Positions 10,294 through 59,480 of a DNA stretch of 64,000 bases are shown here, piece after piece. The notes below the pieces were generated by a model. That model ran no database searches. It saw only the letters and a list, made by a program, of their open reading frames with translations, and had not been told where the DNA came from. Numbering within the stretch: the stretch's first letter is position 1; each line of letters begins with the position of its first letter. Source of the DNA: Rickettsiales bacterium (lineage in GTDB: Bacteria > Pseudomonadota > Alphaproteobacteria > Rs-D84); NCBI GenBank assembly GCA_031283185.1, contig JAITCH010000003.1, positions 39,900 to 103,899 of the forward strand, read 5' to 3'. The translations under genes were made by a program, and so were the position numbers.

Positions 10294-10304
10294 TTTCTAT
10301 TGCC

Positions 10305-10328
10305 GGGCGGGGTCTCCGAACCCCGCCC
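10305..10328. repeat. conserved GC hairpin (GGGNGGGGTCTCCGAACCCCNCCC family)
   Basis: gggcggggtctccgaaccccgccc between convergent rpoA and fabZ; same loop as hairpins at 19225 and 27487. Confidence 0.7.
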
Positions 10329-10345
10329 GAAATAGGAATATAAAA

Positions 10346-18825: not shown

Positions 18826-18854
18826 TTGCACATCGGGATAAAATCTGATATAAT
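18826..18854 (+). promoter_or_regulatory. sigma70 promoter, short version of the repeated promoter cassette
   Basis: TTGCAC, 17-nt spacer, TGATATAAT; shares ...aaaatctgatataataaatccaa.caaagg with 42056 and 26691 cassettes. Confidence 0.6.
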
Positions 18855-18877
18855 AAATCCAAACAAAGGAAGCAAAA

Positions 18878-19195
18878 ATGAAAACAAAACTTTTAATTAT
18901 GCCAATAGTGGCAATGATGGCGGTTGGCGCGATAAATGCGGTGAGTGCATTCGCCCCGGATGTTGAATCAAAATTTGCCGAAATATGCCAAGGTTTTGAT
19001 GGCAATGTCCAAGCAAGTGAGGTTAATGGTAGAAATATGTTGAGTTGCAAAGTTCCCGTCACTGATGTAAAGGCCGCTTGGGATATAAATGGAAGTATTA
19101 TTCGTATTGTCCAAAGCGAAGGACTTGAAGTAGGAATGTCGGCTAGTTTTAGGCCAGAAGAGGGCGATATGGCCGTAGTATCCATAAGTGAATAG
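18878..19195 (+). CDS. small secreted hypothetical protein
   Basis: 105 aa; signal peptide MKTKLLIMPIVAMMAVGAINAVSA similar to that of 42242 gene. Confidence 0.7.
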   Translation: MKTKLLIMPIVAMMAVGAINAVSAFAPDVESKFAEICQGFDGNVQASEVNGRNMLSCKVPVTDVKAAWDINGSIIRIVQSEGLEVGMSASFRPEEGDMAVVSISE

Positions 19196-19224
19196 TTTTT
19201 TTTGGAATGGATATTTTTCTTAGC

Positions 19225-19250
19225 GGGAAGGGGTCTCCGAACCCCTTCCC
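19225..19250 (+). terminator. conserved hairpin terminator module
   Basis: gggaaggggtctccgaaccccttccc followed by GAACATTTT; 40-nt block identical at 27481-27521. Confidence 0.65.
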
Positions 19251-19310
19251 GAACATTTTCGCACATTATCAGTTGCTTAGACTTAATGATTAAGATATAA
19301 TTTGTTTCAA

Positions 19311-26083: not shown

Positions 26084-26183
26084 ATGTGATTTTACATTTT
26101 TTGCCAGCGGATTTTTATAGGCAACTATTCTTACTGACATTTTGTGTGTGTTGTGCTTGGATTTCCGGGAATGGAGATTGCGA

Positions 26184-26633
26184 TTGAAGATACTCGTTGC
26201 GATATTTTTTTTACTTATTTTTTCGCCTGTGTTTGCGGCTTGCCCGGACGAGTATTATGAATCGCGCGGCGAGTATGAAAGAACGCACGATATAGTGGTG
26301 GGTTATAAGCAAGGGTGCAAGGTTATAAGAACCAATCGGCTGGACGGATGTGCATCGCGCAAGTCTGTGCAGTGGATGGAGTTTAATAATCAAGAGATGG
26401 TGGAATATGGTTATCAGAATATCTTGTATGACGGGACGGATGTGCAGTGCGATCGGGTGTTGAAAAAGCAGGGGTTTAGGGGGTTTTATAAGGTAGAGAA
26501 TCATGTGCGGGTTTCAATTAACGGACGAACATTGTGCGAGAGGCATTCGGAAGAAGGATATAATCCGCGTGTTGAGGAATGCGAGCAAATGGCCGAACGA
26601 TTTATGAGCGATAAATGTAAAGATAGGTTTTAG
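26184..26633 (+). CDS. putative lipoprotein
   Basis: TTG 26184 preceded by GGAG; signal (M)KILVAIFFLLIFSPVFAAC; ORF open from 26142, so start is uncertain. Confidence 0.6.
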   Translation: MKILVAIFFLLIFSPVFAACPDEYYESRGEYERTHDIVVGYKQGCKVIRTNRLDGCASRKSVQWMEFNNQEMVEYGYQNILYDGTDVQCDRVLKKQGFRGFYKVENHVRVSINGRTLCERHSEEGYNPRVEECEQMAERFMSDKCKDRF

Positions 26634-26690
26634 CCATTAATTTCCTGCCCCCATATTTTTCATTGACAAAATTGTATTTTTCGTTTATTG

Positions 26691-26818
26691 TATAATAAAT
26701 CCAACCAAAGGGTCAAAAAATGGCGGAAACCTACACACACACACACATCTAAACATTAATAAGCCAATTTTTGCACAAAATTAATTATGCGCTAGGGCGA
26801 ATGCCCTAGCGCATTTTT
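26691..26818 (+). promoter_or_regulatory. leader cassette copy 1: -10 box, (AC)7 mini-ORF, terminator hairpin
   Basis: TATAAT 26691-26696; mini-ORF 26720-26752 (MAETYTHTHI*); 12-bp hairpin 26787-26814 plus T4. Confidence 0.6.
26733..26747. repeat. (AC)7 dinucleotide microsatellite
   Basis: acacacacacacaca inside the mini-ORF. Confidence 0.95.
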
Positions 26819-26851
26819 GATAACAAAAAACAAAACCAAGGGAAGCATTAA

Positions 26852-27469
26852 ATGACAAAGACTTTGATAAAGCCAAATTTCACACGAGTATCGGAAGACC
26901 AATATGAAATATATGGACTTCCGTATTCGCGTAGCCAGATATTGGTGGTCAGTGCAGACGGATACGGAACGCTTGACGGCAACAATCATTATTATTGGAA
27001 GCCTGAGTATCGTTTTGATCCGCATTGTCAGGACACCGTTGGGGAAGATTTCAGCGGGGTTGTAAAATTGGGCAAGCGATATAATATAAAAATTGAACGA
27101 GTTTTATCAGTTCCGATAGCAGATGTTGGCCAAGATTTGAGCGGACAAATGGTGGGTGATGTTATTCCGTCTGCGTATAACTTTGATCAACCGAATAATC
27201 CTTGTAATGTTCTGTGTGTGCCGTTGGGCAAGGGCGACAGATCGTTTCATGCAGGCGTTTTTTCATTCCGTCATGAGACATTAGAGCATTTTACAAGTGC
27301 TGGATGGGATACCCAACATGTTTTGGACAAATACGAAAGTTTACAGCCGCATTTTCGTAGTTATTCTCCTTTCATGATAAATTGGTTTTTATTGGACAAA
27401 GACGAATATTTCCAGTGGACTTTGGGTGATAAATTGAAATCCCTGTTTGGATGTAACTACCGATCTTAG
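26852..27469 (+). CDS. hypothetical protein, dispersed modular family (SQILV-DG-TLDGN core)
   Basis: 205 aa; IYGLPYSRSQILVVSADGYGTLDGNNHYYWKPEYRF aligns with the 53143, 56935 and 63595 proteins. Confidence 0.8.
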   Translation: MTKTLIKPNFTRVSEDQYEIYGLPYSRSQILVVSADGYGTLDGNNHYYWKPEYRFDPHCQDTVGEDFSGVVKLGKRYNIKIERVLSVPIADVGQDLSGQMVGDVIPSAYNFDQPNNPCNVLCVPLGKGDRSFHAGVFSFRHETLEHFTSAGWDTQHVLDKYESLQPHFRSYSPFMINWFLLDKDEYFQWTLGDKLKSLFGCNYRS

Positions 27470-27486
27470 CGTGTGGGGGTCTTAGC

Positions 27487-27512
27487 GGGAAGGGGTCTCC
27501 GAACCCCTTCCC
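27487..27512 (+). terminator. conserved hairpin terminator module
   Basis: gggaaggggtctccgaaccccttccc then GAACATTTT. Confidence 0.65.
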
Positions 27513-27590
27513 GAACATTTTATAAACTTATTTTCCGCCAAATAATAAAAAGTTGCAAAATCCAAATTTTAATATAAACTATGCGGAGTT

Positions 27591-27667
27591 CGGGGCGTAG
27601 CTCAGTTTGGTAGAGTGCTTGCTTTGGGAGCAAGAAGTCGAAGGTTCGAATCCTTTCGCCCCGACCA
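27591..27667 (+). tRNA. tRNA-Pro (anticodon UGG), CCA encoded
   Basis: CGGGGCG acceptor stem pairs with CGCCCCG; anticodon arm CTTGC-TTTGGGA-GCAAG; T-arm GAAGG-TTCGAAT-CCTTT; ends ACCA. Confidence 0.92.
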
Positions 27668-27739
27668 ACTATTTTTGTCAAATTATTGTCTTGTTCAGCA
27701 AATAAAGAACTTAGTAGTAGTGAAACAATAAGTTTAATA

Positions 27740-28441
27740 TCACACTGCCCTAATTCTATATGCAACTTTGGTCATAAATTCGTCATAATTATTTAAGATG
27801 ACTGACGATTTGAAAGTATTGCTTATTACGGATGATTGCTTTATGTCAGCCCCCGTATAGGCTTTTACATACTTAGTCCTGTTGGTAATTTTTGTTATAT
27901 CCAATTTCGGCAAAGCAACAACCATTAACAATGTTTTATCCGGCGTATGAAGAAGAGTGTTTGGATTGTCCTCTGACAACTTAACATATTTTTCTACATT
28001 ATGGGCTGAAAACTTTTCTGCCTTTTTGATCGTGCCAGAATTATCATAATAAGGTATTTCTTCCGGGATTATGAATATCTGAAAATACGGGATATTGGCC
28101 GAGCGGATATTTGCAGTTTCGCCCAACATATTCTCAAAATAGTTATTGGAATTTTGCGAATAATTACTCATTACAAATTTCACGGCAACGCCGCCAACAA
28201 TTTCGCCATTGATTTTGGAAATCGTAATATCAACAACCTTATCAATATAACGACCATCAATCTTTTTCTCTTTTCCCGTTCCAACTCCAAGCGACTCAAC
28301 AATATAACTTTTACCAAGCAAATCTTGCAGGTCATTGGCGATTTTTGCATGCAAGATTTTCAATTTTTCATTGCTTCGCGCACCAGTGGTCAGATATTTC
28401 TGAAATGAAACCTTAATAGTTGGCAACAAGTTCAAACCCAT
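27740..28441 (-). CDS. putative type II restriction endonuclease (partner of adjacent methylase)
   Basis: 233 aa; overlaps methylase stop by 29 nt; AT-rich; candidate PD-(D/E)xK-like stretch IDKVVDITISK; no family recognised. Confidence 0.5.
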   Translation of the reverse strand: MGLNLLPTIKVSFQKYLTTGARSNEKLKILHAKIANDLQDLLGKSYIVESLGVGTGKEKKIDGRYIDKVVDITISKINGEIVGGVAVKFVMSNYSQNSNNYFENMLGETANIRSANIPYFQIFIIPEEIPYYDNSGTIKKAEKFSAHNVEKYVKLSEDNPNTLLHTPDKTLLMVVALPKLDITKITNRTKYVKAYTGADIKQSSVISNTFKSSVILNNYDEFMTKVAYRIRAV

Positions 28442-29846
28442 TTGTAATCCTTTCGTTCATATAATGGTTAAGAAATTTAGCCAGGTCAATTGATGAAAAT
28501 GTATAATACCCGCCGCTTTTATAATTTTTCAAAGCATACACATAGTTCAAAAATTCATCGGACATAAGTGCAGATTGAATTTCTTTTATGTGTTTGTCAG
28601 ATATGATATAAAGTCCGCCATAAACGCCACAGCCCGCCGGGACAAAATTTACTTTCAAAGAGTTTTTATCTTTTATTAATTGATTCACTGCGATTTTATT
28701 TTTTGACACATCGCGGAGTGCTTGCGATCGCCCAAACAAATACCATTCGTTTTTATTTGTAATGGCTCGTTTTTCCAGTTTTTCACGATTTGCGGACATA
28801 TGCTCCCAAATGTATTTATTATCACGCACAGCAAATTCCGGTAATGGCGAACCATCGGTTTTATAAGGGAATATACATTTAGTCCATTTGCCAGTAGAAG
28901 ACTTTATGATTTTGATAATATTTTTATTGTCCGCAAAATCGCCGATGAAAATATCATCCGCCAAAGTTGCAAATCCGTTTTTAACCGCAATGCTTTTGTC
29001 ATTCAAATAATGTGTTTCCATATCTCGTAATTTTTGTAGCATACTGCGCGGAGCGAGATAAATTTTTCCATTTATAAACGCGTCATTAAAAGTTAAATTA
29101 TCCACAAAATTTATTTTGCCTGCACCATTATAGCGATAATAAGAAAAGTCTTTGCGGTCATCCGTCACAGCATTATCAAATAAGGAAATCATTGTATATG
29201 TGGTGGCAGGGAAAGGCTGAAAATGTTCCAAATCTATAATCCCGCGCAAATTGCGGCGATTGAATATATAATTACGAAAACTTGCGCCTGCACTGCTGTT
29301 AAGACAAGAACTTGGTGTAATCAGGCACATCTTGCCGGTAGGGGACAGCATATTTAATCCAATCTCGAAAAACACTAAATATAAATCGGTCATGCCTTCG
29401 GATGAAAAGGCGAAATTTTTCGCACCGACATCCATATTATGCACCCGGACATAGGGTGGGTTTCCAACAACAAAATCCATTTTACCAAAGTATGATTTGC
29501 CCAGTTCCAAAGCATCGCCGCAAACAATGTTCCATTGGACATTTGATAAACCGAATTCGGTCGCAACACAATCAAGATTTTCTAAACATTTTCTGTATTC
29601 TGTTGGGTCTTTTTCAATCCCATGAATATATGTTTCAAGTTCAGATTTTAATGAATCGCGCGAATAAACTTTGCAATAACGCCGGACAATTTCGCAAAGG
29701 AACGCTCCATCGCCGCAACTATTTTCCATAATATGTTTGTTGATGATTGGAAATCCATTATAGCCGATAAAATCAAGCATATCTTTTACAAGGTATGCCG
29801 GTGTAAAAACCTGACCCTCTGACTTAATTTTGGCTTTTGGGGACAT
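28413..29846 (-). CDS. N6-adenine DNA methyltransferase (gamma-class, TaqI/Eco57I-like)
   Basis: 477 aa; GQVFTPAYLVKDML, motif I ENSCGDGAFL, motif IV VVGNPPYV. Confidence 0.88.
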   Translation of the reverse strand: MSPKAKIKSEGQVFTPAYLVKDMLDFIGYNGFPIINKHIMENSCGDGAFLCEIVRRYCKVYSRDSLKSELETYIHGIEKDPTEYRKCLENLDCVATEFGLSNVQWNIVCGDALELGKSYFGKMDFVVGNPPYVRVHNMDVGAKNFAFSSEGMTDLYLVFFEIGLNMLSPTGKMCLITPSSCLNSSAGASFRNYIFNRRNLRGIIDLEHFQPFPATTYTMISLFDNAVTDDRKDFSYYRYNGAGKINFVDNLTFNDAFINGKIYLAPRSMLQKLRDMETHYLNDKSIAVKNGFATLADDIFIGDFADNKNIIKIIKSSTGKWTKCIFPYKTDGSPLPEFAVRDNKYIWEHMSANREKLEKRAITNKNEWYLFGRSQALRDVSKNKIAVNQLIKDKNSLKVNFVPAGCGVYGGLYIISDKHIKEIQSALMSDEFLNYVYALKNYKSGGYYTFSSIDLAKFLNHYMNERITNGFELVANY

Positions 29847-34467: not shown

Positions 34468-36804
34468 ATGAATGAAAAAAAGTTAATTTTAATTAGTCTT
34501 ATATTCTGCCTCCCGCTAGCAATGGCGGGAGCGGACACAGATGCTAATACTGCTCGCGCCGCCGCCACCAAACAGCAAATCATCAACACTCAGATAAAGC
34601 CTCGCCCGGTCGCGGACGATAAAGTCCCCTTCGCTGGCGAAGGGGTGGACGGCAAAGCCGGACGGGGTAGTGGTAATAATGCGTCATCTCGCACAGCATC
34701 CGCAACTCCATCAACCACCCAATCCCGCACTGCCGTCCAAACGGCCACCGCACCTGCGCCGACCACAGATGCCGCGCGTTCCGTCCAAACGCGGCGCACT
34801 ACAACTGCGGCAACTGAACCGGCCGTGCGTTCCGATGCTGCCCGTGGAACGCGGAGTGTTGCTGACGAAATTTCCGAACGCGTGCCGGTATCTGCTCGTT
34901 CTGCATCTACTTCGCCGCGCCGTGGCGATACTGGCACGGGTCGTCAATCGGTCGCCGCAAGCGGCGGTCGCGCGATTGTATCGCGGACTGGCGAATATAC
35001 GACTTCCAACTTTGATGTGCGTTCGTCTTCGCATCGTTCTGCCCGCGCTCGCGCGGCGGTGGACGAAGACGCGCCCGTTTCCAATTCTGCCGTGGACAGC
35101 ATTATGAAGGATGCTGCGTTAACATCTTGCGCCGCGCGTTATGAAGAATGTATGGATCAGTTTTGCGATGTTGTGGATGACAATCAGAAACGCTGTTCTT
35201 GTTCCGGCAATTTGCAAAACTTCAAGGATGCGGAAGACCAGTTGAAAAAGGCGAATCAGAATCTGAATACGGTCGCGCAGAATATCCGCTATGTTGGATT
35301 GTCCGCCGAAGAAATTTATGCTTTGTTTAACGAGACCGAGGCGGAGCAAGCAATGCGCGGTGTGAATGATATTTCGCAGACGCGGAGTTTGTTGGAAGAG
35401 ATTGAAAAAATCATTGCTGGCGCAACCGACGACCTTAACAGCAAGGGCGCGCAGAAACTGGGTGGTGGCGTGAATATGTTTGACCTTGCGTTGGACGGGA
35501 ATGCGATGGATATGGACGCGTTGTTTGGAACTGGCAGTGCGAATAATATGTCGAATCTTCGCGGGACATCGCTGAAAAATGCGGCGGCGAAGAAATGCCA
35601 GAACATAGTGAATGATTGCAAAAAGGAAGGGGTCAAGGCGGATCAGTTGACTGCGAATTATGATCTGAAAATTGATAAGTCTTGTTTGGAATATGAAAAG
35701 ACGCTGACCAAGATGAATGATTCTGTTACGAATAATATCCGCTCTGCGAATACTATGTTGCAGAAAGCGCGGCTTGCGGTGTTAGAGAGTCAGAATGAAT
35801 ATGACTTCAAGGGTTGCGTGCAAATGATTGATAATTGCATTTTGGAAGATACTTCATGCGGCAAGAATTATATTAAATGCCTTGATCCAACGCGCAACTT
35901 CTTGGACGAAACAGGCAAGGTTATACTTGGTGGAAATCTACCTATGATTAAATACGCGTTCTCTAAATGTTCCGCGTCAACCGATTCTAGTTTATGTAGT
36001 AAAATTTGTATAACATCAACCGGGGCGAGTTGCACCGAAGGCGTAAATGGTTGCACTTGTAATAGCACATACACAGATATGAAATCTATGGTTGACGATG
36101 GTAGTAATAAGGTTGCGAATCTTCTAATGCAGAAAATCGGCAATGATCCTAAGGCTGGTGGTATGTGTATAGATGTGGTAAAAAGTTGCAGGCGGTTGAC
36201 TTATAAAGACGGCGCATATAATCCTGCGAATGAAGTTGTGCGTGAATATAAATTGCGCGCCGTTAGTCAGATGAAATCTGCGGCGGCCAAGGTGGTTTCG
36301 GATTACGCGAATAAATGTCTGACGGATGTTGGAACTTGTTATAGTAATCAGATGACCAATATATCTGCCTGGACATCGGTATATGCTGGGGTAAGTGCCG
36401 AGAATGTAAAGAATGTAATGCTTGGGGCTTGTCGCACGGTTTCATATACTTGTTCATCTGCGATATTCGAGGCTGATATAGTATCTTGCCCGCGCCCGCC
36501 GGTTTGGCCGGAAACTGCTTCGGTGCCATCAACTACGCAAGAGGATAAATGTATAGATAGTCTTTCCAAGTTGTTCTACAACTCACTTCTTTGCGGACCC
36601 AATATGGAATATAAACAGGTTACGGACAGATACTCGACCGATAGTCCGAAGAAAAAGGAATATAAATGTGTTTGCCAGTTTGGATATGAAAGTGTGGGCG
36701 GAGTATGCCGTCTATGTCCGAATGGCGCGGATGCTGCGGTCAATATGGAGGCTGGTTCCGATTATATACTTTACGGCGAAACGAAATGCAAACCAACGCC
36801 ATAG
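34468..36804 (+). CDS. secreted cysteine-motif family protein, member 3
   Basis: 778 aa; signal MNEKKLILISLIFCLPLAMAGA; CAARYEECMDQFCDVVDDNQKRCSCS at 35128-35205; second motif GCVQMIDNCILEDTSCGKNYIKC. Confidence 0.88.
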   Translation: MNEKKLILISLIFCLPLAMAGADTDANTARAAATKQQIINTQIKPRPVADDKVPFAGEGVDGKAGRGSGNNASSRTASATPSTTQSRTAVQTATAPAPTTDAARSVQTRRTTTAATEPAVRSDAARGTRSVADEISERVPVSARSASTSPRRGDTGTGRQSVAASGGRAIVSRTGEYTTSNFDVRSSSHRSARARAAVDEDAPVSNSAVDSIMKDAALTSCAARYEECMDQFCDVVDDNQKRCSCSGNLQNFKDAEDQLKKANQNLNTVAQNIRYVGLSAEEIYALFNETEAEQAMRGVNDISQTRSLLEEIEKIIAGATDDLNSKGAQKLGGGVNMFDLALDGNAMDMDALFGTGSANNMSNLRGTSLKNAAAKKCQNIVNDCKKEGVKADQLTANYDLKIDKSCLEYEKTLTKMNDSVTNNIRSANTMLQKARLAVLESQNEYDFKGCVQMIDNCILEDTSCGKNYIKCLDPTRNFLDETGKVILGGNLPMIKYAFSKCSASTDSSLCSKICITSTGASCTEGVNGCTCNSTYTDMKSMVDDGSNKVANLLMQKIGNDPKAGGMCIDVVKSCRRLTYKDGAYNPANEVVREYKLRAVSQMKSAAAKVVSDYANKCLTDVGTCYSNQMTNISAWTSVYAGVSAENVKNVMLGACRTVSYTCSSAIFEADIVSCPRPPVWPETASVPSTTQEDKCIDSLSKLFYNSLLCGPNMEYKQVTDRYSTDSPKKKEYKCVCQFGYESVGGVCRLCPNGADAAVNMEAGSDYILYGETKCKPTP
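34624..34677. repeat. family B palindromic element inserted in-frame in member 3
   Basis: gtccccttcgctggcgaaggggtggacggcaaagccggacggggtagtggtaat, translated VPFAGEGVDGKAGRGSGN; same element is intergenic at 45723, 49491, 50781, 56798. Confidence 0.85.
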
Positions 36805-38646: not shown

Positions 38647-38657
38647 ATCAAAATAAA

Positions 38658-38708
38658 TTCCCCGCCAATGGTGGCGGGGTGTCCGGCTTTGCCGGACGGG
38701 GTGGTTAG
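38658..38708. repeat. family B palindromic element
   Basis: ttccccgccaatggtggcggggtgtccggctttgccggacggggtggttag. Confidence 0.85.
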
Positions 38709-38762
38709 AAAATTTCCCTTGCCAACCGCTAAAATCCCGCTATAATCACATACAAATAAATA

Positions 38763-38795
38763 AGTCATTGCCCGGCTTGACCGGGCAATCTCGGC
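38763..38795. repeat. family A palindromic element
   Basis: gtcattgcccggcttgaccgggcaatctcggcc. Confidence 0.85.
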
Positions 38796-38810
38796 CACCA
38801 AGGGGAAATT

Positions 38811-41817: not shown

Positions 41818-42046
41818 TTCCCCTCCAAGGTGGAGGGGTGCGCCCTAAGGGCGCGGGGTGGTTGGTGCTTATCCATTCCCAATCGTCATCCCCGCGGCTT
41901 GTCGCGCCGTAGCGAAGCGTAGGCGGAAGGCCGGGGTAGTGGTAATAAGTCATCCCCCGGCTTGACCGGGGGATCACGGCCTTATATTTTCCTGCCCCCG
42001 TTGCCGGGGGCGGGATGTCGGGCCAAGCCCGACAAGGTGGGGGTAG
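41818..42046. repeat. pile-up of four palindromic elements (B, A/B hybrid, A, C)
   Basis: 41818-41865 (B), 41885-41943 (hybrid), 41949-41981 (A), 41989-42046 (C), back to back. Confidence 0.85.
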
Positions 42047-42055
42047 TTTTACAAT

Positions 42056-42213
42056 TTGCACATATGAATAAAATCTGATATAATAAATTCAACCAAAGGG
42101 TCAAAAAATGGCAGAAACCTACACACACACACACACACACATCTAAACATTAATAAGCCAAATTTTGCAACGAATTAATTATGCGCCAAGGCATTCCGCC
42201 TCGGCGCATTTTT
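42056..42213 (+). promoter_or_regulatory. leader cassette copy 2: promoter, (AC)10 mini-ORF, terminator hairpin
   Basis: TTGCAC, 17-nt spacer, TGATATAAT (42079-42084); mini-ORF 42108-42146 (MAETYTHTHTHI*); hairpin 42181-42209 plus T4. Confidence 0.65.
42121..42141. repeat. (AC)10 dinucleotide microsatellite
   Basis: acacacacacacacacacaca inside the mini-ORF. Confidence 0.95.
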
Positions 42214-42241
42214 ATATAACCAAAAACAAAAGGAAGAAAAA

Positions 42242-42601
42242 ATGAAAATGAAACTTTTAATTGCGCTAATTGCATTTGGTGCAATCAATAATGCAATGGG
42301 TTGTTCATCAGTTTCGCATTCGGTTGAGACTGAGTATGAAGGACGTGTAGTAAAGCAGTGTGGTTATGATAAAGAACTGCTTGAAGAATCCCGACAAGCA
42401 TTTAGGACTGCCTGTTCTGAAAGTGGAGGATATATTGAAGAAAAGACATATTGTCATTTTCCGGTAATGCTTAATATAGAGATTACAGGAATGGAAGAAA
42501 AATGTTCACAGATTCAAGCCAAGATGGGTGAATTTTCTGATTTGGAAATTTCGGTCTTGGACTATGGATATTGTGATTTAGGGATGGATCCTAAATCATA
42601 A
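42242..42601 (+). CDS. putative lipoprotein
   Basis: 119 aa; MKMKLLIALIAFGAINNAMGC lipobox-like. Confidence 0.7.
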   Translation: MKMKLLIALIAFGAINNAMGCSSVSHSVETEYEGRVVKQCGYDKELLEESRQAFRTACSESGGYIEEKTYCHFPVMLNIEITGMEEKCSQIQAKMGEFSDLEISVLDYGYCDLGMDPKS

Positions 42602-42627
42602 TAATTAAGTATCCTTGGCGGGTTTAG

Positions 42628-42653
42628 CGGTAAGGGGCATCTCACCCCTTCCC
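42628..42653. terminator. hairpin between convergent genes (variant of conserved module)
   Basis: ggtaaggggcatctcaccccttccc then GAAAC. Confidence 0.5.
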
Positions 42654-42662
42654 GAAACTATT

Positions 42663-43682
42663 TTAATTATTTTTCACATTAGGTGGTCGTTCAATTTGTT
42701 TTTGGGTGGCTTTCAAGTTTTCCAAAAAATGCCGCTCTATATCCGATACATCAGAACCCAAAGCGCGATACTTAGCAAACTCATCCAGGGCTTTTTCATC
42801 TGCCTGCCGCTTGGATATTGTTCCGGCATCTGCCAATAACTTTTTTCCGCCGAGCGCAAGGAATTCATCCAACTTTTTTACCCAGTCTTTCATAAACATA
42901 GACACTTCATTCGTCGCCTGCATTTCTGCAAATTCCAAATAGGCAGTTGTAATTTTATTCAAAGTATCAAGTTCTTTATCATTAAGATAATTTTTCGCCA
43001 CTACCACATCCATCTTTTGTGGGCGCGAACCCGTCCAACTTTTAAGTCCCATAAATGGCTGACCTGCATCTGCCCGTTCATACTGCAATTCTGCCGCAGT
43101 GTGTCCGTGCGCTGCGAAGTGCATTTTGTTCTGCACTATTCTAAAAAATTCCAATGTTTCAACTGCATTTGGATCGTAATCCATAGATGTAGCATAAATA
43201 TCAAGAATCTGACGATAGAATACTCGCTCACTAGACCTTATATCACGAATACGGGCGAGCAGTTCTTTCCAATATCCGCCTCCACTGGATATTTTCAGTA
43301 GTTCGTCATTAAGTGCGAATCCTTTGCGTGCATATTCTGATAAAATCTCGGTTGCCCAACGGCGGAATTGTGTCCCGATGCGGGACTTGACTCGATACCC
43401 GACGGCAATAATCATTTCAAGATTGTAAGAGCGGATTTTATCATTTACTTGTCCGCGGAATCCACGATTCACGGCTTGTAAGAAATCCTTACAAGTCGCA
43501 TTTTCAGCCAATTCTTCATCTTCGTAGATGTTTTTTATGTGTTGAGTAATGTTTTGAGTGGTGGTTTGGAAAAGGTCGGACATCTGTGCCTGAGATAGCC
43601 ATACATTGCCATCGGTTAAGCGAACGGACAACTTAGTTTTTCCATCTTCTGCGGAATAGATTATAAGTTCTTGTTTGTCCAT
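42663..43682 (-). CDS. RhuM family virulence/defence-island protein
   Basis: 339 aa; LIIYSAEDGKTKLSVRLTDGNVWLSQAQMSDLFQTTTQNITQHIKNIYEDEEL is the typical RhuM N-terminus. Confidence 0.85.
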   Translation of the reverse strand: MDKQELIIYSAEDGKTKLSVRLTDGNVWLSQAQMSDLFQTTTQNITQHIKNIYEDEELAENATCKDFLQAVNRGFRGQVNDKIRSYNLEMIIAVGYRVKSRIGTQFRRWATEILSEYARKGFALNDELLKISSGGGYWKELLARIRDIRSSERVFYRQILDIYATSMDYDPNAVETLEFFRIVQNKMHFAAHGHTAAELQYERADAGQPFMGLKSWTGSRPQKMDVVVAKNYLNDKELDTLNKITTAYLEFAEMQATNEVSMFMKDWVKKLDEFLALGGKKLLADAGTISKRQADEKALDEFAKYRALGSDVSDIERHFLENLKATQKQIERPPNVKNN

Positions 43683-45519: not shown

Positions 45520-45540
45520 TGCCAACTCCTTTCTATTTAA

Positions 45541-45773
45541 TTCCCCGCCAATGGTGGCGGGGTGTCGCGCCGTAGCAAAGCGTAGGCGGACGGGGTGGTT
45601 AGATTTTTTCGTGTCAACATCATAGGCAACATTGTCAACTTTGTCAAGTATTAATTGAAAGCGGGTGGGGGTCTCCCGACCCCCACCCGTCATCCCCGCG
45701 AAGGCGGGAATAGGGCTCTTAATTCCCCTTCGCTGGCGAAGGGGTGGACGCGAAGCGGACGGGGTAGTGGTAG
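45541..45773. repeat. pile-up of palindromic elements (B, GC hairpin, D, B)
   Basis: 45541-45602 (B), 45663-45688 (gggtgggggtctcccgacccccaccc), 45689-45715 (D), 45723-45773 (B). Confidence 0.85.
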
Positions 45774-49459: not shown

Positions 49460-49543
49460 TTCCCCTTCGCTTGATGTAGTCGCACAAAAGTCCCCTTCGC
49501 TGGCGAAGGGGTGGATGCCGCAGGCAGACGGGGTAGTGGTAAT
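49460..49543. repeat. family B element with partial duplication
   Basis: ttccccttcgc...tcgcacaaaagtccccttcgctggcgaaggggtggatgccgcaggcagacggggtagtggtaat. Confidence 0.8.
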
Positions 49544-49588
49544 AAATCCCCACTTCACACCTCGCACTAAATATGCTATAATATATTT

Positions 49589-50701: not shown

Positions 50702-50956
50702 TCCCTGCCCCCTTGAGGGGCGGGGCGGTCGCCTGTTTCGGCGACCGGGGGTGGGGGTATCGTAAGTTAATCGCACAAAAGTCCCCTTCGCTGGCGAAGG
50801 GGTGTCAGCCAAAGGCTGACGGGGTAGTGGTAATAAAACCCAAACGGCACCTTTGGTGCCGTCATCCCGGCGGCTTGTCGCGCCGTAGCGAAGCGTAGGC
50901 GGAAGGCCGGGATATTTGTAATAAGTCATCCCCCGATTTAATCGGGGGATCTCGGC
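50702..50956. repeat. pile-up of palindromic elements (C, B, A/B hybrid, A)
   Basis: 50702-50758 (C), 50771-50834 (B), 50862-50919 (hybrid), 50925-50956 (A). Confidence 0.85.
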
Positions 50957-50978
50957 TAAATAAAAACCAACACTCAAA

Positions 50979-53079: not shown

Positions 53080-53106
53080 TTGACAAAAAGCGGGGGGGGG
53101 TATAAT
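53080..53106 (+). promoter_or_regulatory. sigma70 promoter with G9 homopolymer in the spacer
   Basis: TTGACA (53080-53085), 15-nt spacer AAAAGCGGGGGGGGG, TATAAT (53101-53106). Confidence 0.6.
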
Positions 53107-53142: not shown

Positions 53143-53790
53143 ATGATACAAGATTTACAGAATTATAAAATTGATGATCTGTCGAACATAGATAAATTGC
53201 CGCAGGATGTCCAATTTCGTATATACAAGGCTTTGAACACGAAATTCCATAATTCGCCAATGCTTTGCGGTGAATCGTTCCAAAAAATCTCGGACGAAGA
53301 GATTCGGATATTCGGCATACACTATACTCCCAGCCAAATTCTGGTCATCGGTCCTGACGGACAAAAAACCCTGGACGGCAATAAGTCATATTATTATCTG
53401 CCGAAATACAAGTTTAGTAAAGACGATAATAAGTATATACAAAACAAGTTCGGAAGATTTGTGGAATTGGGTAAAGAATATAATATAAATATCGGCCAGG
53501 TTGCGATCGTCCCGGTGAAATATAAAGAGGATGAGTTCGCCAAGTGCGTGGGTCAGGCGATCCCCGAGGCTTATGATTTTTCCAATGCGGATGAACCTTG
53601 TTGTGTGCTGTGCGTGCCGTTCGAGGGCAGGGACCAGGCACTAATTTCCGGCGTCTTCTCGGATTGCCGCCTCTCGGTCGGCGACTTCGCGTGGTGCGCG
53701 GGGATTATTTTAATGAACTACGCGGGTGTGAACACGGCTTTCCAGGGCGCGGTGCGCTTGGCTCTCGAACAAGTGCAAAAAACTAGATAA
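53143..53790 (+). CDS. hypothetical protein, dispersed modular family (N-module + core + C-module)
   Basis: 215 aa; AAGGAG SD; ~65% identical to the 56935-57615 product; C-terminus FQGAVRLALEQVQKTR. Confidence 0.85.
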   Translation: MIQDLQNYKIDDLSNIDKLPQDVQFRIYKALNTKFHNSPMLCGESFQKISDEEIRIFGIHYTPSQILVIGPDGQKTLDGNKSYYYLPKYKFSKDDNKYIQNKFGRFVELGKEYNINIGQVAIVPVKYKEDEFAKCVGQAIPEAYDFSNADEPCCVLCVPFEGRDQALISGVFSDCRLSVGDFAWCAGIILMNYAGVNTAFQGAVRLALEQVQKTR

Positions 53791-53804
53791 CGAGAGAACG
53801 ATTT

Positions 53805-53843
53805 GGGGGGGGGCGGGGGCTTTTGTGCCCCCGCCCTTTTTTT
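53805..53843 (+). terminator. intrinsic terminator preceded by a G9 run
   Basis: G9 at 53805-53813; 10-bp stem gggcgggggc/gcccccgccc, loop ttttgt, T7. Confidence 0.8.
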
Positions 53844-53905
53844 ATTCACTTGACATTTAATATATAATATCACATAATATATACTATAAAATTAAAGGTG
53901 GTATT

Positions 53906-54190
53906 ATGAATGTTATACAAGATGTTCGCCCGATAAGCGATTTTGTAAAAAGTGCCGGAATGCTTCTTGATTCAGTAAAGGAAACTAAACGCCCAATGTT
54001 TATTACCAAAAACGGCGTAATTGATGGCGTTGTCCTTGACCCGCATTCATATCAGCAGTTGATTGATTCCCAAGAACAAGCAGTATTGCATGATATTCAT
54101 GCCGCACTGCGGGATATTGAAGCCGGAAGAACCACGCCATATGAACAAAGTTTTGATAGAATCAGAAAAAAATACGGATTCGGCGAATGA
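53906..54190 (+). CDS. Phd/YefM-type antitoxin
   Basis: 94 aa; RPISDFVKSAGMLLDSVKETKRPMFITKNGVIDGVVLDPHSYQQL; stop overlaps toxin start (ATGA). Confidence 0.85.
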   Translation: MNVIQDVRPISDFVKSAGMLLDSVKETKRPMFITKNGVIDGVVLDPHSYQQLIDSQEQAVLHDIHAALRDIEAGRTTPYEQSFDRIRKKYGFGE

Positions 54191-54513
54191 ATAAATATGT
54201 GGTTCAAACATCAGAAATATTTGAAAATCGGCTTGATGGAATCATTAAATACATATATTTAGAAAGTCCGCAGATAGCGGACAAGGTTTTTGATGCGCTA
54301 AAAGATATGGTGGGCAAGTTATCTTATATCGCGCTTGCTTGCCCGGTTGCTTATGAGGCGGTTTATGTGCCGGGTGTAAATCTTCGCCAAGTATTTTGTA
54401 AAAATTTCAGAATTATTTTTGTTGTTCGTGATGATAATGTTTTTGTCGCGGCGATACAGGCTTGCCGACAGAATTTGCTGTCCGAAGATGAAACTAAGAA
54501 CCTCGCTTTATGA
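54187..54513 (+). CDS. ParE/RelE-family toxin
   Basis: 108 aa; FRIIFVVRDDNVFVAAIQACRQNL typical C-terminal strand pattern; coupled to the antitoxin. Confidence 0.8.
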   Translation: MNKYVVQTSEIFENRLDGIIKYIYLESPQIADKVFDALKDMVGKLSYIALACPVAYEAVYVPGVNLRQVFCKNFRIIFVVRDDNVFVAAIQACRQNLLSEDETKNLAL

Positions 54514-54602
54514 CCCCCCATTCCAAACCTTTATATCCCCGGAAAACTTTCGCATCGCACTCCACAACGCAACGCTGGTCAACCATAAAATCGGATGGGG
54601 TA

Positions 54603-56735
54603 TTAAACTCCGGCGGATTTTTTGTGGGGTTCAATTAGGAAGTCTGGAAGGAACCCGGACGGCGAGATGGCCTGCTTTTTGCGAAGTCCTTCGTCTTCAA
54701 ACCACCTTGGCAAGTCCGCCTCTATCGGTCGGTTCGCGTGGCCTTGGATTATTACGATTTCTTTCTTTTCGGATAGGGTTATGATGTCCATTGGTGCGTA
54801 AAGCGGAACGGGTTCTTTATTTTTGCCATCATCTCCGACTTCAATTTTTTGACCCATCATATGGGAGAATGCTTCGGCAGTTTTCATAGAATTTTGGCGA
54901 AGAACGATTTTCGCGGCGGTGGTGGACATCAGGGTTTCTGCTGCCTCACGCGAATATCCCGCAGCAATTTGTTCCAAGTCTTGCCCGATAAGCAGGTATG
55001 AAACCTGTTGTCCGCGCCCGACTGCGGGACCTTCAATGACGGCATTCAGTTTTATCATTTTAGGAAATTCGTCCAATACGAACAGGACGGGGCAGGGGCC
55101 AATTTTTCCATCTGGCTTTACCAAATCGGGCGGATTGGATATAAGGAAGTTGGACATTAATTCAACGAAGATTCCAGTGATTGGATTAAGCGCGCCGGCA
55201 TCAACTTGGTTGATGGACAGATAGACCGTTACTGGTTTGATTTTTCCATCTTTTGGGTCTTTCATTCCGCGCAGGTCTTTGAAGTGGAAATCGGAATGCG
55301 AAGTGCGCGCGCGAACGGCGGCATTGCGGAACACGGCGAGCGATGCGAATACCGTCGACAAAATAGATCCGCGTTCCCGGTCTGGTGTGTTGGCAAGTTG
55401 CGTTAATTCCAAGATTGCGCGATGCGCGTATCCGAATTGTTTGGCCTCGTTCACTGCGCCTTGGAACAGGTCTTTCATAGAATCTTCCATTCCGACATAT
55501 TGGTCGCCTTGGCGGCGGCGTTCTTCGACCTTGGCTTGGATGGCGAGTTGCGAAGTATTTATCCAGTCAAAAATCATAGAGAAAGATGCTTCGCGTCCGA
55601 TCCAGTGCGGCGGGATGTTTGCCCAGGTTCCGATGTGGGCATAGTTTGCGTCCGTAAGGTTTCCTGCACGGAGAGCGGTAATGGCAGCGGTTGCGTTTAT
55701 GTCGGAAATTTGGGAGTAGTAAGATGCAAGAAGTTCTGCGTCCTCGGCGTCAAATTCGCCGGATTTCAGGCGGGAAAAGAACCAGTCGTTTGCGCGCGCG
55801 CGTTCAATCTTTGATACCATAAAGTGGATAAAGCCGGACAATGCTGCGCGTCCAGTCAGCGTCCAGTGAACTTCCTTTGATGTTTCGCCGATTAGAACAT
55901 TGCACATACTATCGACATAAAGTTCTCGTTCCGACATATCCGGCGGAATGTGGGACGGAGATAATGGATTCCACGAAGGGTAGTATATTCCGCGGGTTGG
56001 ATCGTCTTGACCTGCCCAGTTAATGACGAATACGGGACCTATTGTTGAACGATAGCCGGAAGTCATCCGGGATATTTCGGGCTTGGGGTCGTTCACGATC
56101 ATTGAAATCGTATCGCATTCAAATATGGTGGGCACAACGACTCCGGCGGTTTTACCAGTGCCCGGAGGGGCAACGCAAAGCGCGGATAATGTTTCGGTCA
56201 GTTTGATGTATTTCTTATTAAATTTCCCAAGCACCATCATAAAGCCGTCGAACAGGCTCGCGCCTTTGCCGCCCATTTTCTTGATGTCTTTTTCGTTTGC
56301 CTTGCGGGAAGACTTCTTGTCGAAGACATCTGAACCATAAGGACCCAGCGACTTGAAATTATCATTATTAATAATTATATAAACCGCGAAGGCAAGCATT
56401 GGGAAAATTGTATAAATATCGGTGCGAAGGATGACGCGCACTGCCCAGTCTGGGATTTCTGCGAATACGGAAAGACCGAACGAAGACAGGAAATTTTGCA
56501 GATAAATGGACAGCCAAATTTGGGTAGCGTGCGTCCATCCATAGCGCAGGATATGTTCGGCTGGGAATGCGGCGGCGAGGGATAGGAACAGGACGAGCAA
56601 GGCGAACACGGCGAATCTACCGCGCCAAAAGAAACGCGCCATAGGTGTCTGTTCGTGGTCGTCATATTTGGATGACAGGAAGACCCCGAGACCCTTTCCT
56701 TTTCCAGACGCCGAAAGAAGTTTTAATTTAGTCAT
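54603..56735 (-). CDS. virD4: type IV secretion coupling protein VirD4/TraG family
   Basis: 710 aa; N-terminal TM segments; Walker A VAPPGTGKTAGVVVPT; NDPKPE (VirD4 DPKGE-like); Walker B VLFVLDEFPKM. Confidence 0.88.
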   Translation of the reverse strand: MTKLKLLSASGKGKGLGVFLSSKYDDHEQTPMARFFWRGRFAVFALLVLFLSLAAAFPAEHILRYGWTHATQIWLSIYLQNFLSSFGLSVFAEIPDWAVRVILRTDIYTIFPMLAFAVYIIINNDNFKSLGPYGSDVFDKKSSRKANEKDIKKMGGKGASLFDGFMMVLGKFNKKYIKLTETLSALCVAPPGTGKTAGVVVPTIFECDTISMIVNDPKPEISRMTSGYRSTIGPVFVINWAGQDDPTRGIYYPSWNPLSPSHIPPDMSERELYVDSMCNVLIGETSKEVHWTLTGRAALSGFIHFMVSKIERARANDWFFSRLKSGEFDAEDAELLASYYSQISDINATAAITALRAGNLTDANYAHIGTWANIPPHWIGREASFSMIFDWINTSQLAIQAKVEERRRQGDQYVGMEDSMKDLFQGAVNEAKQFGYAHRAILELTQLANTPDRERGSILSTVFASLAVFRNAAVRARTSHSDFHFKDLRGMKDPKDGKIKPVTVYLSINQVDAGALNPITGIFVELMSNFLISNPPDLVKPDGKIGPCPVLFVLDEFPKMIKLNAVIEGPAVGRGQQVSYLLIGQDLEQIAAGYSREAAETLMSTTAAKIVLRQNSMKTAEAFSHMMGQKIEVGDDGKNKEPVPLYAPMDIITLSEKKEIVIIQGHANRPIEADLPRWFEDEGLRKKQAISPSGFLPDFLIEPHKKSAGV

Positions 56736-56797
56736 ATTTCATTATATCATAAAAAAATAATAATGTCATTTTTAACTTCCCTGTCCAACACGATATA

Positions 56798-56921
56798 GTC
56801 CCCTTCGCTGGCGAAGGGGTGGACGGCGTAGCCGGACGGGGTAGTGGTCAATAAAAATTCCCCGCCAATGGTGGCGGGGGTTAAATAAGTCATCCCGGGG
56901 CTTGACCCCGGGATCTTGCCG
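56798..56921. repeat. pile-up of palindromic elements (B, partial B, A)
   Basis: 56798-56848 (B), 56858-56880 (partial), 56889-56921 (A). Confidence 0.85.
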
Positions 56922-56934
56922 AATAAAATCGCCG

Positions 56935-57615
56935 TTATAGCACCATCCCCAAAGGCGGGCAGCAAGCCATACGAACAGCGTTCTGAAAATTAGAAAGATT
57001 ATCCGCGCTGTATATGGCATCACGCGCCGCACATTTGGCAAATTCGGGAACCGAGTGCCAATAGTCCGCGAAAATGCCGGAATTTAATGGTTTGTCCCTA
57101 CCTTCAAACGGAATGCAAAGTGCGCTACACTTCAAGTCGATTTCCCCTTTGTTAAAATCATAATACTCTGGGACAACATGGCCAACAATATTGGCAAAGT
57201 GGTTATTATAAAATTTCACTGGGACTATTGCGACCTGACCGATATTTACTCGGCACGCTTTACCCAAATCTACCCAGGCACAGAATCTATCTTTTATATA
57301 ATCATTGACGGTTTTATAGCAGGTTCCATAGTCGATTGTATCAAACTTACAGTTTGGCTTCCAATAATATGAATTATTGCCGTCCAGCGTTTCCTGTCCA
57401 TCCGCACTTATTATCAAAATTTGGCTTGGGGCATAGGTTAGACCGAATATCTTATATTCATCATCAGAAATTTTCTGGAACGATTGCCCGCCAAAAATTG
57501 GCGAATTTCGGTATTTAAGATTAAGGGATTTGTATATACGAAATTGGACTTCATCTGGCAATTTATCTATGTTTGACAGGTCGCCAATTTTATAATTCTG
57601 CAAATCTTTTATCAT
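56935..57615 (-). CDS. hypothetical protein, dispersed modular family
   Basis: 226 aa; MIKDLQNYKIGDLSNIDKLPDEVQFRIYKSL...; inverted paralog of 53143-53790. Confidence 0.85.
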   Translation of the reverse strand: MIKDLQNYKIGDLSNIDKLPDEVQFRIYKSLNLKYRNSPIFGGQSFQKISDDEYKIFGLTYAPSQILIISADGQETLDGNNSYYWKPNCKFDTIDYGTCYKTVNDYIKDRFCAWVDLGKACRVNIGQVAIVPVKFYNNHFANIVGHVVPEYYDFNKGEIDLKCSALCIPFEGRDKPLNSGIFADYWHSVPEFAKCAARDAIYSADNLSNFQNAVRMACCPPLGMVL

Positions 57616-59278: not shown

Positions 59279-59373
59279 AATGGTCTCCTTGGATTTTGAC
59301 CTTTTTCTGTTGGCAGTCTAGCATAAGAAATCTTTTTGTCAAGCACATTTTAATCCCCTGTCAATCTTCTTTT

Positions 59374-59474
59374 GTCATCCCCGCGAAGGCGGGGATCTCA
59401 AATTGTAAAATGCCAAATAATTTTCCTGCCCCCGTTGCCGGGGGCGGGTGTCGGCTTTGCCGACGGGTGGGGGT
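59374..59474. repeat. family D plus family C palindromic elements
   Basis: 59374-59412 identical to 16688-16726; 59423-59474 ttcctgcccccgttgccgggggcgggtgtcggctttgccgacgggtgggggt. Confidence 0.85.
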
Positions 59475-59480
59475 ATTTGG

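Follow-up and report, generated by a model that had tools for sequence, protein, structure and literature searches.

Organization of the leader cassette

Within the window, that is, the whole 64-kb stretch of DNA that was analyzed, a complete leader cassette was found twice on the + strand, the second copy having gone unseen in an earlier sequence-only reading of the locus. Both copies follow the same order of parts: a promoter, an SD and ATG, a mini-ORF encoding MAETY(TH)nI and its stop codon, a GC-rich hairpin with a run of five T residues, and the SD and ATG of a downstream gene. Copy 1 (26663-26851) was read directly from the sequence, while copy 2 (42056-42241) was found through the second AC tract reported by TRF and then read in the same way.

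Copy 1 begins with a sigma-70-like site spanning 26663-26696, in which the -35 hexamer TTGACA (26663-26668) is followed by two options for the -10 box, TATTGT (26686-26691) at a spacing of 17 nt and TATAAT (26691-26696) at a spacing of 22 nt. An SD, AAAGGG (26707-26712), precedes the mini-ORF, which runs from the ATG at 26720 to the TAA at 26750-26752 with the codons ATG GCG GAA ACC TAC (ACA CAC)2 ATC TAA and encodes the peptide MAETYTHTHI. The (AC)7 tract, scored by TRF as 7.5 copies, lies inside this mini-ORF at 26733-26746. Two alternative TAA stops follow, the first (26757-26759) in the frame reached by gaining one AC unit and the second (26782-26784), 2 nt 5' of the hairpin, in the frame reached by losing one. 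The intrinsic terminator, identified by terminator scan and by folding, spans 26787-26818 and consists of a 12-bp stem with a GAAT loop and a T5 run. Its GC-rich hairpin reads ATGCGCTAGGGC-GAAT-GCCCTAGCGCAT (26787-26814), was scored as terminator-like on both strands by a pattern scan for terminators, and folds as RNA with -27.5 kcal/mol (z = -7.6). Since the first of the five T residues at 26814-26818 is paired within the stem, this description is equivalent to the 12-bp hairpin with a T4 tail that had been reported from the sequence alone; the TATAAT, the AAAGGG, the mini-ORF, and the SD and ATG of the gene were likewise located where the sequence-only reading had placed them. Beyond the terminator, a conserved A-rich linker, ATAACAAAAAACAAAA, and the SD of the downstream gene occupy 26819-26851, with the SD itself, AAGGGAAG, at 26838-26845. 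The gene starts with the ATG at 26852 and encodes a 205-aa protein (26852-27469, + strand) whose family is linked to VirD4 genes. On the upstream side, the terminator scan found no terminator between the end of the preceding gene (26633) and the cassette.

Copy 2 has a sigma-70-like promoter at about 42056-42084, composed of TTGCAC, a 17-nt spacer and TATAAT. Its SD AAAGGG and mini-ORF, encoding MAETYTHTHTHI and a stop, occupy 42095-42146, with the ATG at 42108 and the TAA at 42146. The (AC)10 tract reported by TRF lies at 42121-42140, and the alternative TAA stops are found at 42151-42153 and at 42176-42178, the latter again 2 nt 5' of the hairpin. The terminator (42181-42213) comprises a hairpin at 42181-42209 and a T5 run, with a predicted RNA fold of -20.8 kcal/mol (z = -5.3). 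The linker, followed by the SD AAGGAAG (42230-42236) and the gene, extends over 42214-42601. The gene itself (42242-42601, + strand) encodes a lipoprotein-like protein of 119 aa with a signal peptide followed by a Cys.

Conservation between the two copies

Outside the repeat, the leaders of the two copies are 90-95% identical. Identity was 40/42 from the -10 box to the tract, 36/40 over the shared 40 nt that run from the tract to the hairpin, and 19/24 in the hairpin arms. The stretch AAAGGGTCAAAAAATGGC and the linker ATAAC(A/C)AAAAACAAAA are common to both copies, and conservation extends about 20 nt beyond the T-run, up to the RBS of the gene. The -35 regions and the downstream genes, by comparison, are not alignable between the copies, and the two genes are unrelated. 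AAAGGG-N7-ATG is present in both copies, with (AC)7 or (AC)10 wholly within a mini-ORF whose lone substitution from copy 1 to copy 2, GCG>GCA, is synonymous.

The AC tract is the sole hypervariable element of this otherwise conserved leader. The main length difference between the copies, (AC)7 versus (AC)10, amounts to three units and keeps the frame. AC tracts of at least five units occur exactly twice in the 64-kb window, in both cases within a cassette copy, and the occurrence of an (AC)7 tract is far beyond chance (2e-4 expected per 64 kb; first-order Markov model). Together with two G9 runs, described below, these tracts are the only notable simple repeats in the window. It was also noted that (AC)7 is short, which counts against a slippage reading.

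The hairpin arms of copy 2 differ from those of copy 1 by two compensatory pairs (T-A>C-G and G-C>A-T) and by one pair that is broken (an A.C mismatch). Pairing in the hairpin appears to be maintained through these compensatory substitutions, a pattern that points to selective maintenance of the terminator. The duplication alone is weak evidence of function, since this genome is full of duplicated intergenic modules.

Reading frames, RNA folding and promoter-like sites

We assessed where a ribosome leaving the AC tract would encounter a stop codon in each frame. The three frames of copy 1 stop at 26750, 26757 and 26782, which is 34, 27 and 2 nt 5' of the hairpin, in agreement with the frame arithmetic of the sequence-only reading, and the geometry of copy 2 is identical. 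Both copies are presently in the 34-nt state (number of AC units n = 1 mod 3), while n = 0 mod 3 places the TAA 2 nt before the 5' arm in each of them. Only one of the two out-of-frame states therefore reaches the hairpin, with its stop 2 nt short of the hairpin and not inside it, which counts against a switch. By our own estimate, an 11-codon open stretch arises in AT-rich sequence with a chance of roughly 0.4; as this is not rare, the presence of the long frame is not in itself statistically supported. Selection for a short peptide or ORF would explain the common frame of the two copies and the synonymous change equally well.

Constrained folding, in which the 3' arm of the hairpin was forbidden to pair, left the 5' arm pairing with nothing upstream in both copies, i.e., no antiterminator was found by this approach. 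Because no RNA antiterminator was found, the ribosome would be the most economical agent for defeating the terminator. The ribosome on the mini-ORF is the only element placed to reach the hairpin, and its reach is set by the number of AC units. Sigma-70-like sites were recognized, at the sequence level, upstream of both leader ORFs (26663-26691 and 42055-42084). The 32-33 nt that separate the T-run from the gene ATG contained no promoter-like site in either copy, and the downstream gene consequently most likely depends on read-through.

At gathering thresholds, tRNA was the only Rfam match in the window, and a permissive Rfam scan of 26600-26900 returned sub-threshold noise only. With neither a competing RNA structure nor an Rfam match, trp/his-type attenuation and known riboswitches are excluded; a riboswitch reading of the leader was dropped for want of an antiterminator fold or an Rfam match. 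An integron attC-like hairpin was rejected on inspection, as the GTTRRRY / RYYYAAC core was lacking. A long-range stem (CAAAA..UGGC / GCCA..UUUUG) was also predicted at 26714-26773 and 42102-42167, where it would enclose the AC tract and cover the start codon of the mini-ORF. This stem does not vary between the copies, although a T>A change weakens it in copy 2, and it was set aside on account of its non-significance against shuffles (z -1.6 and -0.7) and its lack of covariation.

Genomic context and shared modules

We found that the front part of the cassette belongs to a module, TTGCAC-17-TATAAT-AAATYCAAMCAAAGG...ATG, which is common to three genes in the window (18826-18880, 26663-26722 and 42056-42110). 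The TATAAT...CAAAGG module was counted three times in the window against 0.01 expected. The member at 18826-18880 (+ strand), which was detected with a profile of the two copies and matches copy 2 at 83%, is a promoter-SD-ATG module without mini-ORF, repeat or terminator. It reads TTGCAC-17-TATAAT-AAATCCAAACAAAGGAAGCAAAAATG and directly starts a 105-aa secreted ORF (18878-19195). The SD-ATG of the mini-ORF is homologous to the start of this 18878 gene, which indicates that the RBS of the mini-ORF is of the kind used for genuine genes. The RBS and first codons of the copy 2 gene (42242) are also homologous to those of the 18878 gene (0/500 shuffles), and on this basis the mini-ORF-(AC)n-terminator segment looks inserted between the shared promoter and the gene's own RBS.

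Several other repeated elements were noted in the window. A family of terminator hairpins with a conserved GGGG-TCTCCGA-CCCC loop region and covarying stems is located at 10297-10338, 19218-19259, 27480-27521 and 42622-42663; two of these copies are 100% identical, and the hairpins are found after rplQ and after each of the three genes with the shared promoter module. GC-rich REP-like palindromes of several families lie in intergenic regions (34611-34684, 38648-38796, 41884-42050, 45531-45750, 49477-49550, 50768-50957, 56785-56921 and 59370-59475), often just 5' of TATAAT boxes. For a Rickettsiales-labelled bacterium, this genome has an unusually modular and repeat-rich makeup.

Two further observations concern the surroundings of copy 1. 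A GU-rich run, TTGTGTGTGTTGTG, lies on the + strand at 26142-26155 in the 5' region of a 149-aa lipoprotein-like gene; it complements the (AC)n RNA, which lies 580 nt downstream of it, with a match count within chance. On the - strand, the same positions are CA-rich, without an SD, and stand directly before the ATG at 26140, which is the longest-ORF start of an 1851-aa PMP-repeat protein. On the other side of the unit, 27591-29846 contains a tRNA-Pro(TGG) gene and, after it, an Eco57I-like N6-adenine methylase of 477 aa with an overlapping orphan ORF of 233 aa on the other strand; this is probably a small restriction-modification island.

Genes downstream of the cassettes

The downstream proteins of both copies are orphans with no Pfam match, and the 205-aa protein of copy 1 had no database homolog when used as a single query. 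Through profile searches, it was assigned to a small family without a Pfam domain, comprising about 25 clusters among 1.84 billion representative proteins. The only named relative is a hypothetical protein from a MAG labelled 'Rickettsiales bacterium'. A structure search was precluded by the poor AlphaFold model of the family (pLDDT 54). The copy 1 gene has three paralogs in the window, two of which flank a VirD4-type coupling-protein gene (window 53143-57615), and distant relatives of the family are encoded just downstream of VirD4/TraG (L009, 1-4576; L010, 1-4618). This arrangement of neighboring genes suggests a role linked to type IV secretion. No simple repeats were found near the gene in these two distant relatives.

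The two G9 runs of the window are both associated with the paralog at 53143-53790. One lies inside the 15-nt spacer between a TTGACA and a TATAAT (53080-53106), and the other (53805-53813) is at the foot of a terminator just after the paralog. A G9 run within the spacer of a putative promoter is the classical layout of a repeat-switched promoter, and the presence of such runs around a paralog of the copy 1 gene suggests that this genome uses repeat-based switching.

Searches beyond the window

Exact-pattern scans with 19-21-mers did not find the cassette in one genome per species, in JGI metagenomes or in viral contigs, the matches obtained being chance ones in GC-rich unrelated DNA; it was likewise not found by blastn against plasmids. 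The ribosomal proteins of this organism are singletons at 90% identity, characterizing a singleton lineage for which no strain comparison is therefore possible. Within the sample itself (SRR14710906), Logan contigs break at the repeated modules. One contig (L011, 6880-7024) ends inside the copy 1 AC tract, after (AC)6, and another (L001, 1-31) begins exactly after the copy 2 AC tract. From the last and first 31-mer positions, we infer that the SRR14710906 sample contains one or more additional copies or alleles of the cassette. An AC-length bubble appears less likely as the cause of these breaks, as their positions fit a merge with another copy or allele better, and the contig breaks were not counted as evidence of slippage.

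A candidate phase-variable attenuator

We interpret the cassette as a candidate phase-variable, translation-dependent transcription attenuator whose state would be set by the length of (AC)n. This interpretation is held tentatively, and we place it a little below an even chance. It assumes that the promoter is used, that the mini-ORF is translated, that transcripts terminate, that the tract slips and that expression is affected, all of which we infer. Transcription would start a few nt past the conserved TATAAT, and a ribosome would load at AAAGGG-N7-AUG and translate the mini-ORF. When n = 1 or 2 mod 3, the ORF would end 34 or 27 nt before the hairpin, allowing the terminator to fold. Most transcripts would then stop at the T-run, giving an RNA of about 115-120 nt, with only leak-through left for the gene. 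Both copies would at present be in this terminating state (n = 1 mod 3), and n = 0 mod 3 would arise by losing one unit or gaining two. According to established footprints, a terminating ribosome shields some 12-15 nt on the downstream side of its P site. Given this footprint and a stop only 2 nt away, the 5' arm would be occluded at n = 0 mod 3: the ribosome terminating at the TAA would cover the arm, no hairpin would form, and RNA polymerase would enter the gene. The CA repeat may itself aid the switch by keeping the mini-ORF well translated.

An attenuator of this kind had been put forward in the sequence-only reading. This interpretation is supported in part, by the recurrence of the frame geometry in copy 2, by the compensatory changes in the hairpin, by the absence of an internal promoter-like site or antiterminator, and by tracts of 7 and 10 units, while its novelty did not stand, as described below. 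The -35 of copy 1 is poorly spaced relative to the TATAAT, which counts against the switch reading. A more far-reaching version of the proposal would treat the cassette as a portable stochastic switch of about 130 nt (mini-ORF, (AC)n and terminator) that was placed, at several loci with unrelated genes, between a shared promoter and the gene's RBS and gave each gene an independent on/off lottery, with the terminated CA-repeat RNA possibly also acting in trans; we regard this version as distinctly unlikely.

Alternative explanations

A possible, though rather unlikely, alternative is a fixed leader that does not switch. Its promoter, CA-enhanced mini-ORF and leaky terminator would provide constant low read-through, or insulation from upstream transcription, and the AC lengths would drift neutrally in frame. 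Such a leader would be consistent with the same short frame in both copies, with a single ORF substitution that is synonymous, with the reuse of many intergenic modules in this genome, and with the enhancement of translation by CA repeats and ACA motifs (PMC3879156). As there is no terminator after the upstream gene (end 26633), the hairpin may end that transcript too. However, a strong terminator between a promoter and its only gene would be wasteful unless conditional, the tract is the one hypervariable element within a 90-95% conserved leader, and the layout agrees feature by feature with the proven pil1/pil3 switch. The conservation of the leader, set against a diverged -35 region and unrelated genes, also speaks against a decayed remnant, in which a truncated gene start fused to a terminator module would have been copied by recombination in a repeat-rich genome and would have no regulatory role. 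The promoter-SD-ATG module does drive an intact gene at 18878 as well, and the window holds many duplicated REP-like modules, both of which would suit a remnant; yet the hairpin has been kept by compensatory changes, and the copy 2 unit sits exactly between the shared promoter and a gene RBS homologous to that of 18878 (0/500 shuffles). We consider a remnant very unlikely.

The cassette could instead encode a stand-alone, trans-acting sRNA of about 115-120 nt with sibling copies, whose unstructured CA region would pair with GU-rich targets or titrate an RNA-binding protein, the genes being reached by incidental read-through. A promoter and terminator of its own are present, in the fold the CA tract stays single-stranded within a large loop, after which comes an AU-rich stretch beside the terminator, and the sRNA GcvB is known to pair with C/A-rich elements (PMC3879156). 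The GU-rich run at 26142-26155, in the 5' region of the neighboring gene, could serve as a target, but GU-rich matches outside the cassette are at chance level (2 found versus 1.6 expected). This reading is further weakened by a 5' part that is a bona fide SD-ATG module, by conservation that runs about 20 nt past the T-run to the gene RBS, by the presence in both copies of a same-strand ORF with an SD 32-33 nt on and no promoter-like site, and by the lack of an Rfam family match, and it appears unlikely. The RNA of about 115 nt, which the sequence-only reading had offered as an alternative in the form of a terminated small RNA, is the expected by-product of any attenuator of the pil1/pil3 type. 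The least probable explanation, and one that we find scarcely credible, is a classical amino-acid attenuator comparable to the thr and his leaders, in which the ribosome would stall at Thr (ACA) or His (CAC) codons under starvation and refold the RNA. The alternating Thr and His codons of the mini-ORF and the terminator downstream recall such leaders, although the Thr/His content simply follows from the AC repeat and neither target, the orphan protein of 205 aa or the small lipoprotein-like one, is biosynthetic. The 5' arm has no alternative antiterminator pairing in either copy, and this reading was already contradicted by that result of the constrained folding.

Comparison with known systems

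The proposed switch shares individual features with several known forms of control. In pyrBI-type attenuation of E. coli, a translating ribosome sterically blocks the terminator, and UTP-dependent polymerase pausing tunes the coupling. The likeness lies in a leader ORF near the terminator and a closely coupled ribosome that prevents folding without antiterminator RNA, whereas the proposed switch would replace UTP-dependent pausing with a heritable frame change. Simple-repeat contingency loci are similar in that slipped-strand changes of repeat length set expression; these include H. pylori oipA, in which CT dinucleotide repeats drive phase variation (PMC10564699), a precedent in favor of a dinucleotide tract as a switch, and promoter-spacer homopolymers. 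In such loci, the repeat lies in the 5' coding region of the gene or in the promoter spacer, while here it is part of a separate mini-ORF further upstream, and its action would be via termination. The RepG-tlpB G-repeat leader (PMC8295292) and NikS / HPnc4160 (PMC8035401) of H. pylori also have a repeat in or near a leader or sRNA gene that tunes control, but they act via sRNA-mRNA pairing or sRNA promoter strength and not via leader-ORF length and a terminator. Translation has been reported to be enhanced by CA repeats downstream of the start codon (Yang et al. 2014, PMC3879156; Martin-Farmer & Janssen 1999, as cited in PMC3879156). The position of the CA repeat just 3' of the start codon is alike, although an enhancer needs neither a terminator nor a variable length.

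The combination of a repeat-bearing leader ORF with a terminator had been taken in the sequence-only reading as undescribed, but the same logic has been proven for pil1 and pil3 of S. gallolyticus (Danne 2014, PLoS Pathog, PMC3894217). The pil1 leader ORF contains 22 GCAGA repeats, and its stop precedes a stem-loop terminator by 39 bp; when the repeat number changes out of frame, a longer leader results whose translation blocks the hairpin and raises pilus transcription, a model confirmed by experiments in which the ATG was mutated, the terminator deleted or stop codons introduced (PMC3894217). The same module is found at pil3, with 13 repeats and a terminator of -28.2 kcal/mol placed 33 bp downstream, and in S. 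gallolyticus strain 2475, which is high-expressing, the leader stop is immediately upstream of the hairpin (PMC3894217).

In both systems, a promoter, an RBS and ATG, a repeat-bearing leader ORF, its stop, an intrinsic terminator and the gene RBS are found in the same order. The gap from stop to terminator is 33-39 bp in S. gallolyticus and 34 nt here, the hairpins have -18.7 and -28.2 kcal/mol in S. gallolyticus versus -27.5 and -20.8 kcal/mol here, and each genome has the module at two loci, which differ in repeat number. In S. gallolyticus an out-of-frame repeat change extends the leader and lets the ribosome prevent hairpin formation, and the frames predict the same here. The cassette thus appears to possess every sequence-level feature of the pil1/pil3-type attenuator class. 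It differs in having a dinucleotide repeat, (AC)7-10, in place of 13-22 copies of the pentanucleotide GCAGA, in that only a single frame of the three extends to the hairpin, ending 2 nt before it, and in the absence of sequence homology to the streptococcal leader. The host here belongs to a Gram-negative, Rickettsiales-labelled uncultured lineage, and the targets, known here from sequence alone, are a lipoprotein-like protein and an orphan of a VirD4-linked family instead of pili.

If the cassette is confirmed, phase variation through a leader peptide and terminator would have a second case, the first such switch outside streptococci, the first on a dinucleotide repeat, and the first such device to serve as a reusable module before unrelated genes. 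It would show a convergent origin of the design, warrant a systematic search for mini-ORFs that carry repeats ahead of terminators, and mark heterogeneously expressed small surface or secretion-linked proteins in an uncultured, probably host-associated bacterium. Because the cassette matches the proven pil1/pil3 design, the mechanism suggested in the sequence-only reading becomes credible and is strengthened, though it is not new. From this comparison, the cassette is a plausible new, convergent example of a known switch rather than a new mechanism.
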